A stretch of 64,000 bases of DNA from a virus (taxonomy: Duplodnaviria; Caudoviricetes). Position 1 is the stretch's first letter. Every line of letters begins with the position of its first letter. This document shows positions 3,508 to 17,083 of this stretch, in pieces. A program made the position numbers and the translations under genes. Location: positions 1 through 64,000 of the IMG/VR virus record IMGVR_UViG_3300028832_000095. One strand, 5' to 3'. Under the pieces are notes generated by a model, which ran no database searches, was not told the origin of the DNA, and was given only the letters and a program-made list of their open reading frames with translations.

Positions 3508-3882
3508 ATGTTAAACAAAAAGAATACGAGAGTGACTATTTTTGAAACAGGAATGGATAAAGGAATTTATATTCATGATTCTGGAACATTATATGTTTAT
3601 GATACTGATACTCGAACTATGGATTTTATTATTGTAGATGTAGACTTAGAACAAGCTACTGATATTATGAAATTCTGTGATACAGAGGGTGACGAGTCCC
3701 TGGAAAGAAAATATAATTTTGATGACTGGGATTATATTTTCAGTCGCGTAGGTGACAGAGAATCTTTTGCTGAATACATACTTGTAGAATTAGGTGTTAT
3801 AGACAGCATGGATCAGGTACGATGCGATGTTGACGATGACAAAGCATTAGGTGACCTTATGGAAGATGGTTTTTATATCTGA
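3508..3882 (+). CDS. acidic hypothetical protein
   Basis: 124-aa ORF with G-rich RBS. Confidence 0.7.
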   Translation: MLNKKNTRVTIFETGMDKGIYIHDSGTLYVYDTDTRTMDFIIVDVDLEQATDIMKFCDTEGDESLERKYNFDDWDYIFSRVGDRESFAEYILVELGVIDSMDQVRCDVDDDKALGDLMEDGFYI

Positions 3883-3900
3883 TAGAAAGGAAGAATGTAA

Positions 3901-4713
3901 ATGAAACTTACATTAGAAGATCGTAGGTCTGATCTTATTGCTGCTAGGGATGCTTGGGATGCCGAGTATAATAGAGTAAAAGATCAGTTTGATTCCGAGG
4001 TAGATGCTTGGAATGATGCCAAAGACGAAATAAGTTTATTTGTGGAAGATCAAGTAAAAGCGGCATTAGGTAGGGCAGGAAAAGATTTACAAGTAAGCGC
4101 TGAGTTCGCTTATGGTGAATTAGCCCGTGTAGAAGTTGGCAACGGAACTTTTGTTAATCACGACTTCCCACTTACCTGGAATTTTAAGGTAACACTTGAC
4201 AAAGACGGTGAAGTTAAAAAAGAAACAGGTTCTTGGTCCGGACTGGATGCTACATCTTTAGAAGATGTTAGAAAATTAAGAGACATTGTCGATGTACTAG
4301 AAATCTTAAATAGCATGGATTGGTATACTGTTCTCTCTAATATGAAAGCACAGTACCCTGATTGGAAAGAGTATGTAAAGACAAAAACAATTGATAGAGG
4401 TACAAGACCTAATTTCGAAGCAGATCTTCAAGCATTAGACATTGATGACGCCATTGGAAAAGAAGTTCTAATCAAAGGAAAACCTTTACGGTATGATACA
4501 AGATTCAATCGTGAAAGCTACTATATCATTCGTAAAAGAACACCAAAACAGATTTCTGTTACAGAATGTTCTGTTGCATCTGTAGATAGATATAAGAAAA
4601 ATAATCCGGAAGACAGTCTGTTTGATATCGTACAGCGTTATGGTATGGATTATAATATAACAGCAGATAAGTTCTATAACATTCTGCCAAATGATATTGA
4701 GTTTATTAGATAA
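3901..4713 (+). CDS. hypothetical protein
   Basis: 270-aa ORF, AAGGA RBS, N-terminus MKLTLED. Confidence 0.75.
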   Translation: MKLTLEDRRSDLIAARDAWDAEYNRVKDQFDSEVDAWNDAKDEISLFVEDQVKAALGRAGKDLQVSAEFAYGELARVEVGNGTFVNHDFPLTWNFKVTLDKDGEVKKETGSWSGLDATSLEDVRKLRDIVDVLEILNSMDWYTVLSNMKAQYPDWKEYVKTKTIDRGTRPNFEADLQALDIDDAIGKEVLIKGKPLRYDTRFNRESYYIIRKRTPKQISVTECSVASVDRYKKNNPEDSLFDIVQRYGMDYNITADKFYNILPNDIEFIR

Positions 4714-12872: not shown

Positions 12873-13706
12873 ATGGCATCTATGATTAACGAAGCCCTGC
12901 TTGAAAATCAGGCAAAGGGTAAAAAACTAATCGAAAGATTCAGCAGAAATATTCGTATTGCTGAGTCCGTACAGAAGAAGAAGGGTAGCACCCTTACACT
13001 TGAGAAGAAGATGGCTCTTGCACAGGTTCTTTCAAACACTCAGCAGAGACTTGCTGAGGCTACTAATTCCTCTAACATTCCTAGCAAGACATTCTTTATG
13101 GATATGCTGACCGCAGTTGTTCCAAACCTTATCGCTCCTGATATCGTTTCTACTCAGGCTCTTGAGTCTAAGGCAGGTATGATTTCTTACCTCCGTTTCT
13201 CCTATGGTACTGATAAAGGAACTGTCAGTGCAGGTCAGATGTTTAACAACTCCCTTTACACCGGACAGTCCAACACCTATTATTCTTCCAGAACAATTGA
13301 TGAGGAGCCTGTTGCAACTGGTGTGAACTTTGAGTTTGTTCCAATTCTCCCAAAGACTATTGTTATTTCACTTCCAGATGGTACTCGTTATGTTGATGAC
13401 GGTACTGGTAATCTTGTTGATCCACTAACTGCAACTCAGGTTGGTACTATTGACTATGCAACTGGTGCTTTCACTTGTGCATCTGCTACTGATGGCACAA
13501 CTGCTACATATGAGTACAACAATGAGCAGGTTCCGGATCTTAACGTTCCAGAGATCAATATGTCTCTCGCACAGATTCCAGTTTATGCAAAGAGCAGAAA
13601 ACTTGCTGCTTACTGGGGCTTTGATGCAGCTTATGATCTTAAACAGCAGTATGGTACTGAGATTCTTGATGTTATGTCCACTCAGGCTGCTGGTGAGATT
13701 GCCCAT
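12873..13706 (+). CDS. major capsid protein (T4 gp23-like), exon 1
   Basis: VPNLIAPDIVSTQ, AKSRKLAAYW, DLKQQYG, GEIAH; joins exon 2 as GEIAH|EIDMEVI. Confidence 0.92.
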
Positions 13707-14726
13707 AAACAACTTGTGGCTTAATCTGGTGACAGATTATGAAAAACCATGTGAATTTCTGGAAAAGCATATAAGAAGTCATATCACTTATATGCCAATC
13801 AGAAGCCAAGATAATTATAATTGAGGTAGTTTATATGTATGGTTACATTTACATGACAACAAATAATATCAATGGCAGAAAATATATCGGTCAGAAAAAA
13901 TCTAATAAGTTTCTCAATGAAAAGTATTTAGGTTCTGGAAAGATACTGAAACAAGCTATTGAATTATATGGAAAAGAGAATTTTTCAGTTCAATTGTTAT
14001 GTGAATGCGAATCAAAAGAAGAGCTTGACAGAATGGAAGTTTATTATATTTCAAAGTACAATGCAAAAGATAGCAGAGAATTTTATAATATATGTAAAGG
14101 TGGAGAAGCCGGACCTGGTGGAGATAAGTTCAGAGGTCATAAGCATACAAATGAAACAAGAGAGCTTATGAGTAAAAACAGATCTGGTGAAAAGAATTCA
14201 AACTATGGAAACCATTGGAAATATAATGAAGTTCAATTAGAGAATAGACGAAAACTTATGTCAGGCTCAGGTAATCCGATGTATGGTAAAAAACAATCGG
14301 ATGAGACAAAGAAAAAGATAAGTGATAAACTTAAAGGAAGATTAAATGGAAAAACAAGAGTTACAAACGGAGAAATAAATAAATTCATTGATGTTTGCGA
14401 TCTTGCCTATTATGAATCTTTAGGATATCACAAAGGTATTTGTCGAAAGTCAAAATAAACTACAAAATTATAATTATAAGGTTCAGAGACTATCGAAAGC
14501 TAGACAATCGCATTTGTAGAAATACATAAACACATAAGCAGATGTGGGCGATTTGAAAATAAGGCTATTATAGCACGAAGCAAGTAGAGTAGGATTTAGT
14601 AAATCCGAAGTGCATGGGTTCTCATATATTTGGTAATAGAATATTTGAGAATGTGATATAGTCCGATCTATACAAAATACATAATGTATAGAGAACTATG
14701 GGAAACGCATAGTTCGTAACATAATG
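13707..14726 (+). ncRNA. group I intron 1 of capsid gene (carries GIY-YIG endonuclease gene)
   Basis: 5' exon ends in U pairing with IGS GUGG (13716-19); Q AATCAGAAGCCAAG, R GTTCAGAGACTA, S GATATAGTCC; ends in G14726; in-frame junction. Confidence 0.88.
13835..14458 (+). CDS. GIY-YIG homing endonuclease with NUMOD3-like repeats (intron-encoded)
   Basis: GYIY...KYIG, YLGSG, FYN; HKHTNETRELMS and KKQSDETKKKIS repeats. Confidence 0.9.
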   Translation: MYGYIYMTTNNINGRKYIGQKKSNKFLNEKYLGSGKILKQAIELYGKENFSVQLLCECESKEELDRMEVYYISKYNAKDSREFYNICKGGEAGPGGDKFRGHKHTNETRELMSKNRSGEKNSNYGNHWKYNEVQLENRRKLMSGSGNPMYGKKQSDETKKKISDKLKGRLNGKTRVTNGEINKFIDVCDLAYYESLGYHKGICRKSK

Positions 14727-15102
14727 GAGATTGATATGGAAGTTATCAGCAAACTCTATCAGGGTGCTGCTGCTGGTCCAGAACTTACTTGGTCTAAGAT
14801 TCCACCTCACGGTGTAAATGCACTTGACCACTATGATTCCTTCTTTGTAAGACTTACAGAGGGTGCAAACATTATCTTTGGTGCAACCCAGAGAGTTCAG
14901 CCGAACTTCATTGTTTGTGGTATCAATGTTGCTGCTGTTATTGAAGTTATGAGAAACTTTGATGGTACTGGTGCATCTGATGCAGTTGGTCCTCACTTCA
15001 TTGGTACTCTTGGTGGTAAGTACAAAGTTTATGTTGCTCCTAACATGGGTGAGGATACCTTTGTTATGGGTTATAAGGGTACAAACTTCCTCGAAGCTGG
15101 AT
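14727..15102 (+). CDS. major capsid protein, exon 2
   Basis: EIDMEVI...NFIVCG...GTLGGKYKVYV...GYKG: gp23 family. Confidence 0.9.
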
Positions 15103-15502
15103 TAACGGATTATGCCGTTGCTGCGTAATACAAGTCCAGGGTAAACCTCGTGAACTGCTGGAAAGCTCGTAAGTGAGTCAATCAGCAGCCAAGCACTATT
15201 GAATAAATAGTGAAGGTTCAACGACTATCGAAAGCTAAACAACCACATTTACAGAAATGTATAAATAGTTGTTACTAGGTGGTTTGAAAATAAGGTTATA
15301 AATATAACACGAAGCAAGTAGAGTACAGCCTTTATTAAAAAGGTTAGCCGTAAAATGATATTAGTTTTACATAAGTCTGTTAAATGGAAGTGCGAGGGTT
15401 TCTATTAGCTTGGTAACAGAGTTGATAGATTCATGATATAGTCTGATCCCCATAGTGATATGGGAAATATACACTATATTACAAAGTGTATAAACATAAA
15501 TG
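15103..15502 (+). ncRNA. group I intron 2 of capsid gene (ORF-less, 400 nt)
   Basis: IGS AUACAA-GUCCAG pairs with CUGGAU|UUGUAU (U.G at splice site); P/Q/R/S core TGCTGGAAA, AATCAGCAGCC, GTTCAACGACTA, GATATAGTCT; ends in G15502; junction gives EAGFVYAPY. Confidence 0.92.
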
Positions 15503-15645
15503 TTGTATACGCACCGTATATTCCTGTTTGCACAACAGACCTTCTTATGCCAGCAGATTTCCGTGGTCAGCAAGGTTATGCTACCAGTTATGGTATGAAA
15601 ATGATTAACGGAAAAATGTATCTTAGAGGCAGAATAACAGGTTGA
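15503..15645 (+). CDS. major capsid protein, exon 3 plus C-terminal copy A (used if intron 3 is not spliced)
   Basis: FVYAPY-IPVCTTDLLMPADFRGQQGYATSYGMKMINGKMYLRGRITG*; total protein 450 aa. Confidence 0.85.
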
Positions 15646-16957
15646 TAGCAAACAATAAGGTATGTACCTTCATATAGTGATATATGATTGTAGTAACAAA
15701 GGTGAATTCAGGGAACATCCTTAGAGCTTAAACTACCAAGCATATACAGTAATGTGTATGTGGATGAAGTAATTACTCATGTACGGTAACAAGGTTTAAG
15801 ATTGGATAACCACTGAGCCAAGCATCCAATTTGTTTTTGGATGAAGGTGCAACGACTATGGGGTGGTGCCCAGTAGGTTCAAATGAACCGAAGTTCCTTT
15901 GGGCTTTGTTTGTAAAGAACAAAGTTTATGATATAGTCTAGCCTTAGTTGATACGAAATTCAACAACCTATTAAATAGGTTTCCGAAAGGATGAGCATCT
16001 TAAAAATGACTGAGAGGTTTATATGATAAAATGCTGTGTATGTGGGCAAACGGTGACATCTAAACGTGGTTTAGCGTTTCATGTGAAGAAACATGATATA
16101 CAGTCTGTTGATGATTATATTAAAATGTTTCCAGATGAAGAACAAACACTGAATCCAAGCATAGATGGACTACTTAGCTGCCCGATTTGCGGAAAGAAAA
16201 ACTTGAAACAACTCACACAACATTTGACATGGATTCACGGATTATCACGATCTGAATTTGAAACTAATTACCCAGAGCAGATATTGTTTATTCCAGAAAT
16301 AAGCGATAGATGTAAAAAAGCGACTGCAATAGGTCACGAAAAATATCTTGAAAATGTAAAAAACAATCCTGAACGATATAAGAAAACCTACCTTGAACGC
16401 GCTGCAAAGATTCGTGAACGATATCCGAACTTAGGAAATCGTATATCGAATAAACTAAGAGAGAATGGAACGTATGCCAGACTTTCCGACATAACGAGAA
16501 AAAAATGGAACGACGAATCTTATCGCAGAATGCAATCAGAAAAGTGCAAAAATCAACATAAGAACGGTTTAACTGAAATAGTTGTTAAGAAATCTTGTAA
16601 TAAAAATTACGTTAAATTTGCTACATTTAATGGAAAGACATATAGATTCCGATCCTCATACGAGTTGAAGTTCGCTGAAATATTGAATAATCTTGGCATT
16701 TCATTCATGTACGAGGAGTTAAAAATAAATTATTTTTATAATGGATTGTTTCATACATACTACCCTGATTTTGCAATACCAAACACGAATATTGTGTTTG
16801 AGGTAAAGCCATATTTTAGAATTCAAACAAAAATGAATCAGGCAAAACAAAGATACTGCGTAGAAAATGGGTATAGTTTTAGATACATAACAGAGTACGA
16901 ACTAAATAATCCAGAATCAATAAATCTCAAAGGATGTTTTTAAGCGTAATAAAAGCA
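15520..16957 (+). ncRNA. group I intron 3 of capsid gene; 5' part holds a duplicate terminal exon, P9 region holds an endonuclease gene
   Basis: Core at ~15700-15940 (GAATTCAGGGAA, CTGAGCCAAGC, GTGCAACGACTA, GATATAGTCT); IGS AGGUAU-GUAC 15658-67 pairs with GUAU|AUGCCU; boundaries inferred. Confidence 0.75.
16023..16943 (+). CDS. intron-encoded putative homing endonuclease: C2H2 zinc fingers plus PD-(D/E)XK nuclease
   Basis: CCVC..HVKKH, CPIC..HLTWIH; RSSYE...YYPDF...FEVK. Confidence 0.8.
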   Translation: MIKCCVCGQTVTSKRGLAFHVKKHDIQSVDDYIKMFPDEEQTLNPSIDGLLSCPICGKKNLKQLTQHLTWIHGLSRSEFETNYPEQILFIPEISDRCKKATAIGHEKYLENVKNNPERYKKTYLERAAKIRERYPNLGNRISNKLRENGTYARLSDITRKKWNDESYRRMQSEKCKNQHKNGLTEIVVKKSCNKNYVKFATFNGKTYRFRSSYELKFAEILNNLGISFMYEELKINYFYNGLFHTYYPDFAIPNTNIVFEVKPYFRIQTKMNQAKQRYCVENGYSFRYITEYELNNPESINLKGCF

Positions 16958-17083
16958 ATGCCTATACTTTCCACCGACCTCTTAATGCCTGCTGACTTCC
17001 GTGGACAGCAAGCTTATGCAACATCTTACGGTATGAAGATGATCAATGGTAAGATGTATCTCCGTGGTAGAATTACTGGTTAA
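16958..17083 (+). CDS. major capsid protein, terminal exon copy B
   Basis: MPILSTDLLMPADFRGQQAYATSYGMKMINGKMYLRGRITG*; 36/41 identical to copy A; absent from the ORF track. Confidence 0.82.
   Translation: MPILSTDLLMPADFRGQQAYATSYGMKMINGKMYLRGRITG

Follow-up and report, generated by a model that had tools for sequence, protein, structure and literature searches.

A mobile group I intron in a phage capsid gene with a predicted terminal A and an internal copy of its downstream exon

The terminal guanosine of group I introns is treated as universal and as mechanistically essential. The locus described here raises the question whether the third intron in the capsid gene of a phage ends in A and, if so, what this may mean for the joining of its exons. 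The locus lies in a window of 64,000 nucleotides (the whole stretch of DNA that was analysed) from an IMG/VR virus record of 202 kb; the source of this assembly was a bovine gut sample. A whole-locus Megablast against GenBank phages gave no match. The closest named relatives of the encoded capsid protein, with about 41% identity, are those of the Bacillus phages HSE3 and SP-15 and of Listeria phage LIS04. The borders between exons and introns were set by aligning the exon translations to the HSE3 and LIS04 capsid proteins, whose genes are intron-less. In this alignment exon 1 ends with the residues ...GEIAH; intron 1 has a GIY-YIG/NUMOD3 ORF inside and G14726 as its last base. Two group I introns score above the Rfam threshold, one at 15093-15465 and one at 15634-15959, the second with an RF00028 score of 52.2 bits against a gathering score of 50 (relatives score 35-64 bits). 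The parts of the gene needed for the following are:

12873-17083, plus strand: gp23-like major capsid gene (Pfam PF07068)
14727-15102, plus strand: exon 2, from the alignment to the HSE3 and LIS04 proteins
15103-15502, plus strand: intron 2, from the same alignment
15503-15519, plus strand: micro-exon of 17 nt between introns 2 and 3, from the alignment to intron-less capsid genes
15520-16957, plus strand: intron 3 (1438 nt), at the site between YAPY and MPI, last base A16957
15520-15645, plus strand: copy 3a, 126 nt at the start of intron 3, in the P1 loop; in-frame, recoded last 41 codons and TGA (15643-45)
16023-16943, plus strand: ORF of 306 aa for a putative intron-encoded endonuclease with zinc-finger motifs and a PD-(D/E)xK fold (Phage_endo_I / TnsA-N-like, Pfam)
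16958-17083, plus strand: exon 3b, the native last 41 codons and TAA stop; starts AUGCCU, which pairs in P10

From 15503 the frame is open to the stop at 15643-45, so that copy 3a is a complete in-frame C-terminus, exactly as long as that of HSE3 and of the same length as in LIS04. After this stop follow a second ribozyme, the 306-aa ORF, whose stop codon lies 14 nt upstream of the 3' splice site, and, with a stop of its own, another copy of the last 41 codons that has diverged from the first (16958-17083). Since 3a with its stop codon lies in the P1 loop, the unspliced mRNA already codes for full-length capsid protein.

Exact-peptide patterns from the endonuclease gave no match in IMG/VR, and an alignment-based search was needed to find relatives. 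The endonuclease has 25 homologs at E <= 1e-20, the window's own protein excluded. The comparisons were made with 20 further ribozyme-endonuclease copies and with intron-free alleles from IMG/VR, JGI, ENA and Logan assemblies. A degenerate DNA pattern covering intron tail and exon gave one new member, L086, which has intron 3 without the endonuclease ORF, together with chance matches (L081, L083, L085). At this one site intron 3 is present in 20 relatives and absent from L007, L009, L013, L008, L010 and a DNA contig of run X4. We class intron 3 as a mobile, phage IA2-like group I intron; the marks of mobility seen in the assemblies are the polymorphism of the site and the intact ORF of 306 aa for the predicted endonuclease.

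The alleles also place the intron. The five intron-3-free relatives L007, L009, L013, L008 and L010 have a single exon 3 which reads ...CCGTAT/ATGCC... and is translated YAPY/MPI (the stroke marks the site), and in the contig of run X4 AAATGTTGTATACGCACCGTAT is joined straight to window position 16958, an intron-less allele. All downstream 3b copies start with ATGCC, and those of L012 and L011 hardly differ from the native exons found in L013 and L010, respectively, which lack intron 3; this holds for the sequence after the stop as well. L022 has a classical intron in the same site without an exon copy (...CCGTAT/AAACAAG...TTTCGG/ATGCCG). The intron-less alleles, the match of 3b to the native exon and L022 together give 15519/16958 as the insertion site and place 3a inside the intron. 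Ligation of 15519 to 16958 would code for the peptide YAPY-MPILSTDLLMPADFR. G16955 was considered as terminal base and rejected, as it would break the reading frame. Among RNA data, run X17 was the sole metatranscriptome with matching contigs; these cover exons 1 and 2 in part as well as sequence downstream of 3b, and with their thin coverage leave the intron and the junction uncovered.

On the 5' side the intron is defined by an extended P1.

15516-15531, plus strand: P1, 5' strand, consisting of exon GUAU, the splice site and the intron start AUUCCUGUUUGC; duplex with 15648-15667, -15.1 kcal/mol
15648-15667, plus strand: P1, 3' strand, containing GCAAACA (closing helix of the 3a insert), AGGUAU (15658-63, P10 guide) and GUAC (15664-67, internal guide)

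The guide GUAC, starting at G15664, pairs with exon GUAU (15516-19) in three Watson-Crick pairs and the canonical U-G wobble; its U15519 is both the last base of the micro-exon and the 5' splice-site U of intron 3, and the wobble with G15664 is kept in the intron family. On the intron side the helix is extended by AU (15520-21) with AU (15662-63), by CCU with AGG, and by UGUUUGC (15525-31) with GCAAACA (15648-54). The last of these is seen in the minimum-free-energy fold and closes the 126-nt insert 3a as a loop, which makes the P1 loop unusual with about 135 nt. An equivalent, covarying P1 duplex (-10 to -17 kcal/mol) was found in all nine introns tested. L012 carries a compensatory change (exon CUAU, guide GUAG), and the closing helix covaries to UGUUUGU/ACAAACA in L006, UGUAUUA/UAAUACA in L017, CCUAUAUUA/UAAUAUAGG in L018 and CUGUG/CACAG in L086. 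The P1 proposed by cmscan at the 3a stop codon (15638-15670) was rejected because it is not conserved; L006 reads GACUAA there.

The 3' side decides which base is the last one, and the elements that bear on it are:

15941-15942, plus strand: P9.0, 5' strand (GC), pairs with 16955-56; covaries in 21 introns
15947-15964, plus strand: P9 hairpin, stem covaries; its loop UACG (15952-55) pairs with CGUA 16945-48
16945-16956, plus strand: intron 3' tail with CGUA (to the P9 loop), a spacer and GC 16955-56 (P9.0, 3' strand)
16957, plus strand: terminal intron nucleotide (omega position), A instead of the canonical G; 7 introns of the family, the window's included, have A and 14 have G

The original prediction took introns 1 and 2 as the standard, and these do read AUAGUC-CG-AU and AUAGUC-UG-AU, both with AU-G at the 3' end, as it had claimed. 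In intron 3 AUAGUC (15933-38) is followed by UA (15939-40) and GC (15941-42), and the 3' end reads AAAAGC-A16957/A16958UG. The layout is thus the 3' strand of P7, two nucleotides and the 5' strand of P9.0, whose partner is the dinucleotide directly before the last intron base. A match of 2 bp is weak in one sequence; it becomes strong because of the covariation among relatives. With 16957 as the last base, 37 of the 42 P9.0 pairs in 21 related introns are formed, in eight dinucleotide types. Among the first eight introns 15 of 16 pairs form in this register, but only 1-8 when it is shifted by 1-3 nt. The types are:

GC/GC: window, L006, L089, L090, L093
AA/UU: L011
GG/CC: L012, L017, L021, L086
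AG/CU: L018
GA/UC: L091
UC/GA: L092, L100
CU/AG: L094
GU/AC: L096
imperfect (five): L022, L095, L097, L098, L099

P10 has 6 bp in the window, AUGCCU (16958-63) with AGGUAU (15658-63) directly 5' of the guide G15664, so that the agreement of P10 claimed in the prediction was found; it is longer in L006 (8 bp) and shorter in L022, L091 and L092 (5 bp), and in the A-ending introns other than the window's its length is 5-8 bp. The pairing between P9 loop and tail changes from UACG/CGUA to UAUG/CAUA in L092, L100, L097 and L093. The predicted 3' splice site 16957/16958 is therefore fixed by four independent lines: intron-less relatives, the P9.0 register in 21 introns, P10 and the pairing of P9 loop and tail. 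All of them agree with the proposed end at A16957 and its GC/GC P9.0.

An end at the canonical G16960, in frame as YAPYI/PILST (5' site after U15522), had been mentioned in the prediction as an alternative that pairs less well; with the same end the 5' site could also lie after U15519, which deletes the Met codon. Both solutions are in frame, there is a U at 15522 (the window, L006 and the closest relatives start 3a with AUU), and model introns with a mutated terminal G reportedly use a cryptic G nearby. However, U15522 faces U15661 and no G, the conserved wobble being U15519-G15664; P9.0 keeps one of its two pairs in the window, and the +3 register gives 8 of 16 in the eight introns, while the register of P10 is lost. 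Moreover, in every G-ending relative the G stands directly before AUG, and the native alleles all keep the Met codon. The lower quality of the pairing is thereby confirmed, and we regard an end at G16960 as very improbable.

Could A16957 be an error of sequencing or assembly? The exact sequence is covered by the source run alone, and this is the one point in favour of an error. As proposed together with the prediction, the base was looked up in reads and relatives: the source run has A with no variant at 16957, and A is also found at the homologous position in six other assemblies, from different samples and studies and with diverged flanks; the endonucleases of these A-ending introns are only 56-72% identical to the window's. 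A terminal A in seven independent assemblies means that it is not a sequencing error, and an error of either kind has a practically negligible probability. The A-ending introns are those of the window, L006, L089, L090, L091, L092 and L100. A terminal G is found in 14 introns by count, the names given being L011, L012, L017, L018, L020, L021, L022, L086 and L093-L099. The window and six relatives thus lack the canonical terminal G, and in the window the terminal A is defined by structure and by exon homology, as in introns of the ND5-717 type. Judged by these assemblies, A16957 is an inherited state of several intron lineages.

How often the A arose was read from two trees. In the tree of ribozyme cores the A-ending introns form three well-supported groups: window, L006, L089 and L090; L091, which is sister to the G-ending L094; and L092 with L100, sister to the G-ending L097. 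Well-supported branches of this tree force three changes of the terminal base. The best tree of the endonucleases has at least two changes, and one origin remains compatible with it. By these trees the terminal A is found in two to three separate lineages of the intron family. The terminal A had seemed linked to an A at 15940, the second base past P7, but with more introns this link was rejected: L091 ends in A and has G at 15940, and L094, L096 and L098 end in G and have A at that position.

The ribozyme itself was compared in the same relatives.

15670-15687, plus strand: P2 hairpin with GUGA tetraloop; of its seven pairs, six show compensatory changes in relatives
15701-15938, plus strand: ribozyme core P3 to P8, from the RF00028 match and RNAalifold covariation

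P7 is formed by G15855-A15859 with U15934-C15938. The normal G-C pair that had been claimed for it is present as G15855-C15938, the presumed guanosine-binding pair; this closing pair is kept in 19 of the 19 relatives whose P7 was read, and the remainder of the helix is unchanged or compensated (GACCA/UGGUC, GAUCA/UGAUC). RNAalifold on eight introns predicts 91 pairs; compensatory changes occur in 56 of these, and 87 are kept in the window. When L006, which also ends in A, is set against the window, 8 pairs differ in both partners and 2 in one partner with the pairing preserved; there are 5 real mismatches and 2 gap artefacts. P9.0 has both pairs in all seven A-ending introns, in the three types GC/GC, GA/UC and UC/GA. 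From these compensatory changes and the perfect P9.0 it follows that the RNA structure, elements of the 3' splice site included, would still be under selection. This argues that the ribozyme is under structural selection in the A-ending lineages, and such continued selection suggests that splicing still matters there.

This evidence bears on the possibility that the second step is dead, with 3a on unspliced mRNA as the sole source of capsid protein and with 3b left over as a displaced relic of the original end of the gene. The second step is taken to require a terminal G, and 3a makes splicing dispensable. On the other hand, a useless ribozyme is not expected to keep a perfect, covarying P9.0 in 7 of 7 introns, or eight pairs with compensatory changes in both partners when two A-ending ribozymes are compared, and a first step alone would destroy the capsid mRNA and should be selected against.

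Of the 20 relatives in which the 5' part was read, L022 alone lacks copy 3a. In the window 3a and 3b differ by 0.86 in synonymous and by 0.10 in non-synonymous sites; within the same genome generally, 60-87% of synonymous sites differ and only 4-14% of non-synonymous sites. A 3a copy matches the 3b of its own genome with a mean of 1.84 mismatches against 5.63 for other genomes, and none of 5000 shuffles was as low. In the A-ending clade there are parallel replacements in 3a and 3b at codons 29, 35, 36 and 41, with a synonymous flavour that is specific to each copy. These patterns of substitution show 3a to be a functional coding sequence adjusted to its host. The low dN/dS and the concordance of residues were also considered as proof that 3b is translated; this was rejected, as an adaptation of 3a to its host, with 3b merely native, explains both.

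The most altered part of 3a is its first five codons (IPVCT against MPILS), which lie within the closing helix of P1. Together with the 5' exon they may rebuild a sequence like the presumed target of the endonuclease, and the P1 helix and this target would both constrain them. The two copies can be told apart by peptides: those spanning the junction would be ...YAPYIPVCTTDLLMPADFR from 3a and ...YAPYMPILSTDLLMPADFR from 3b, and a second discriminating pair is the window-specific GQQAYATSYGMK (3b) and GQQGYATSYGMK (3a).

For a relic 3b it can be said that 3b equals the native sequence of intron-free sister phages and could simply be young, and that the 3b of the window has a unique Ala (GCT, 17012-14) at a Gly which is invariant in 58 other 3a, 3b and native copies and in two distant phage capsid proteins. 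The change from Gly to Ala is a weak hint of relaxed constraint on 3b or of its lesser use. The RNA contigs contain no junction, at a coverage too thin to weigh. Against a relic stands that none of the 21 copies of 3b that were read has a stop or a frameshift. Taking the ribozyme and both copies together, we consider a dead second step unlikely.

Tetrahymena mutants with the terminal G changed to A are said to lose normal exon ligation unless the pocket is also changed. This work on G414 mutants and pocket swaps is that of Price & Cech 1988, Michel et al. 1989 and Been & Perrotta 1991; it concerns the question also raised by intron 3, namely the fate of step 2 with a terminal A and the G-C pair of P7 kept, but G414 was changed in the laboratory, whereas the terminal A of intron 3 occurs in nature, has recurred and has lasted long. 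A natural group I intron with A instead of G at its end is ND5-717 in the mitochondria of hexacorals (sea anemone, mushroom coral), where the terminal A is conserved in the lineage and exons are correctly ligated in vivo (PMC6545197, PMC8146996). ND5-717 is obligatory, vertically inherited and organellar, has no homing endonuclease and carries whole genes in P8. Intron 3, in contrast, is optional, mobile and in a phage; it has a PD-(D/E)xK ORF and a copy of the downstream exon, and its A arose two to three times beside G-ending sisters.

The likeliest reading, to which we would give about an even chance, is that exon ligation in intron 3 is slow or inefficient and that this is tolerated through 3a. 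The first step, an attack by free guanosine behind U15519, would be normal. During the second, A16957 would fit poorly into the unchanged guanosine pocket, and ligation of 3b would be slower or less efficient than in the G-ending relatives. Three tethers, namely the perfect P9.0, the pairing of P9 loop and tail and a P10 of 5-8 bp, would probably give a partial rescue. Full-length capsid protein coded by 3a on unspliced mRNA would buffer the cost, and selection on the terminal G would be relaxed, which would explain that a change from G to A arose or was kept two to three times. The reading fits the Tetrahymena terminal-G mutants, and the A arises two to three times in the family. For a link between the A and the exon copy there is only one relative without a copy (L022), too few for statistics. 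Three considerations go against impaired ligation. By analogy with ND5-717, which ligates in vivo, a terminal A need not impair much, so a strong defect may be doubted; a normal first step followed by slow ligation would cut the capsid mRNA in its coding region, which should be costly for a late gene; and the ribozyme is still under selection in the A-ending lineages. This structural selection and the ligated exons of ND5-717 in vivo also argue against simple decay.

The terminal A could instead be adaptive, or neutral but competent, with ligation about as in the G-ending relatives and with the A curbing hydrolysis at the 3' splice site and full-length circularisation, side reactions that would compete with ligation or cut off the 3' end of the mRNA. 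In favour of this, the A arose two to three times and persisted through a deep divergence (seen in the identities of the endonucleases to the window's), with ribozyme, P9.0 and P10 intact through compensatory changes and with all 3b copies intact; ND5-717 provides a precedent and the rationale of hydrolysis and circularisation (PMC8146996). However, a compensating change in the P7 guanosine pocket of the A-ending introns was looked for and not found. Likewise, none of the ribozyme-core columns that were compared separates A-ending from G-ending introns; the second P9.0 base comes nearest, with C in 6 of the 7 A-ending ones. The Tetrahymena G-to-A mutants, reportedly blocked in normal exon ligation while the pocket is unaltered, go against competence as well, and recurrence is equally expected under relaxed constraint. 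A competent A is in our opinion possible but doubtful. With similar reserve we consider that the A may be useful and for this reason recurrent, giving either a slow or conditional intron which makes two capsid C-terminal isoforms in a set ratio (3a unspliced, 3b spliced), or a suppression of hydrolysis. If this were true, a ribozyme would work with a terminal nucleotide other than G and an unchanged guanosine pocket.

Among known systems intron 3 is most naturally compared with the phage IA2 introns (T4 td, nrdB and sunY; Bacillus SPO1-like and Twort; RF00028). It shares with them the P7 region CAACGACUA / GAUAUAGUC, a 2-bp P9.0, an ORF looped from a peripheral element, and presence or absence at a fixed site in a conserved phage gene. 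It differs from them in that they end in G and in that its ORF lies instead between P9 and the 3' strand of P9.0. We know of no phage IA2 intron with an in-frame copy of the remaining exon in its P1 loop. Insertions of homing endonucleases that bring along a duplicate of the gene end occur in atp6 of Allomyces and in atp6 and cox2 of Glomeromycota. There, as here, a mobile element near the 3' end of a gene supplies its own in-frame C-terminal segment and the native one is displaced downstream; those endonuclease genes, however, are free-standing and have no ribozyme, whereas the copy in intron 3 lies inside a conserved group I intron that could in principle splice to the native exon. The capsid intron of Bacillus phage SP-15 (KT624200, SP15_032-034) is in the same gp23-like family (about 41%) and has an ORF in PF05367, but its insertion site is elsewhere, near the position of the window's intron 1. 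No report of a phage intron with a terminal A was found in the literature, where ND5-717 is the only natural case found. As far as found, three features are new: that a phage intron which is mobile ends in A, that this A originated repeatedly next to sister introns with G, and that it occurs together with a copy of the downstream exon inside the intron.

Intron 3 is thus a natural test of the role assigned to the terminal guanosine. The family offers matched natural pairs with few other differences: the window with L095 or L096, L091 with L094, and L092 with L097. Such pairs allow the part played by the terminal G in the second step and in the choice of 3' splice site to be measured, and with it whether strong P9.0, P10 and tail tethers substitute for it. 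The locus also bears on how an intron becomes "optional" for its host gene, by carrying a spare copy of the downstream exon inside itself.

The 3' end of intron 3, the group I intron in the gp23-like capsid gene, lies close to the stop codon of the endonuclease gene which the intron carries, with only 14 nt between this stop codon and the 3' splice site (window 16941-16957). The loop of P9 pairs with the tail of the intron:

15952-15955 (UACG) with 16945-16948 (CGUA), P9 loop-tail pairing, spanning the 0.9-kb endonuclease ORF

In the related loci L092, L100, L097 and L093 the pairing is UAUG/CAUA instead of UACG/CGUA. It has the look of a tertiary contact or pseudoknot that returns the 3' splice site to the core. 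It should be noted that the tail pairing is overlapped by the endonuclease ORF. A ribosome terminating at the endonuclease stop would sit over P9.0 and the terminal base of the intron, and endonuclease translation and exon ligation should therefore be mutually exclusive on one intron 3 RNA molecule.

At the other end of the intron the 126-nt exon copy (3a, a recoded version of the last capsid codons) is shut into the P1 loop by a long-range helix:

15525-15531 with 15648-15654, P1 closing helix, found at equivalent places in L006, L011, L012, L017, L018, L021 and L086

The partners are codons 2-4 of 3a and the sequence at or directly after its own stop codon, and the helix covaries strongly among these relatives. 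Base pairing in this helix is probably the reason why the recoding of codons 2-4 extends to the amino acids themselves.

The copy 3a (window 15520-15642) was compared with 3b, the native codons downstream of the intron (16958-17080). They differ at 86% of the synonymous sites in the window and at 60-87% in relatives, so that the 75% expected at saturation is surpassed in the window and in several relatives. This excess suggests either selection keeping two direct repeats unlike or very different codon preferences; the gain from unlike repeats might be protection against deletion by recombination or against cleavage by the endonuclease. At 17012-17014 the 3b of the window codes for Ala (GCT). 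The residue is Gly (the G in GYATSYG/GFATSYG) in all remaining 3a, 3b and native copies of the comparison, and also in Listeria phage LIS04 and Bacillus phage HSE3.

Other arrangements are found among the relatives. In L086 (reverse strand, 1277-1994) intron 3 has lost the endonuclease ORF and retains 3a, ribozyme, 3b and a terminal G; unusual residues (YIAGEIL) are common to both exon copies. L022 has a classical intron 3 without a copy and a second element 3' of the capsid stop codon (3533-4660), which contains:

3570-4208, endonuclease ORF
4198-4552, group I core (52.6 bits)
4590-4658, the last 23 codons once more, as a partial copy

The design with an exon copy inside an intron seems to have had a second origin, at a different site, in L022.

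Intron 1 of the same gene was delimited by homology to intron-less capsid genes:

13707-14726, intron 1
13835-14458, its ORF, a GIY-YIG/NUMOD3 endonuclease

The 3' end reads AUAAUG|GAG (G14726), giving the spliced protein GEIAH|EIDMEV; the preceding CUAUG at 14696-14700 is not the splice site. L007-L010, L012 and L013 are without intron 1. In Bacillus phage SP-15 (L002, KT624200; 1565-2371) the annotation joins the capsid gene from two pieces, with an ORF between them that belongs to the Pfam family of the window's intron 3 endonuclease (Phage_endo_I); the insertion site is close to that of intron 1 in the window. It therefore seems that nucleases of the Phage_endo_I fold recur as passengers of introns in the gp23-like genes of Firmicute phages.
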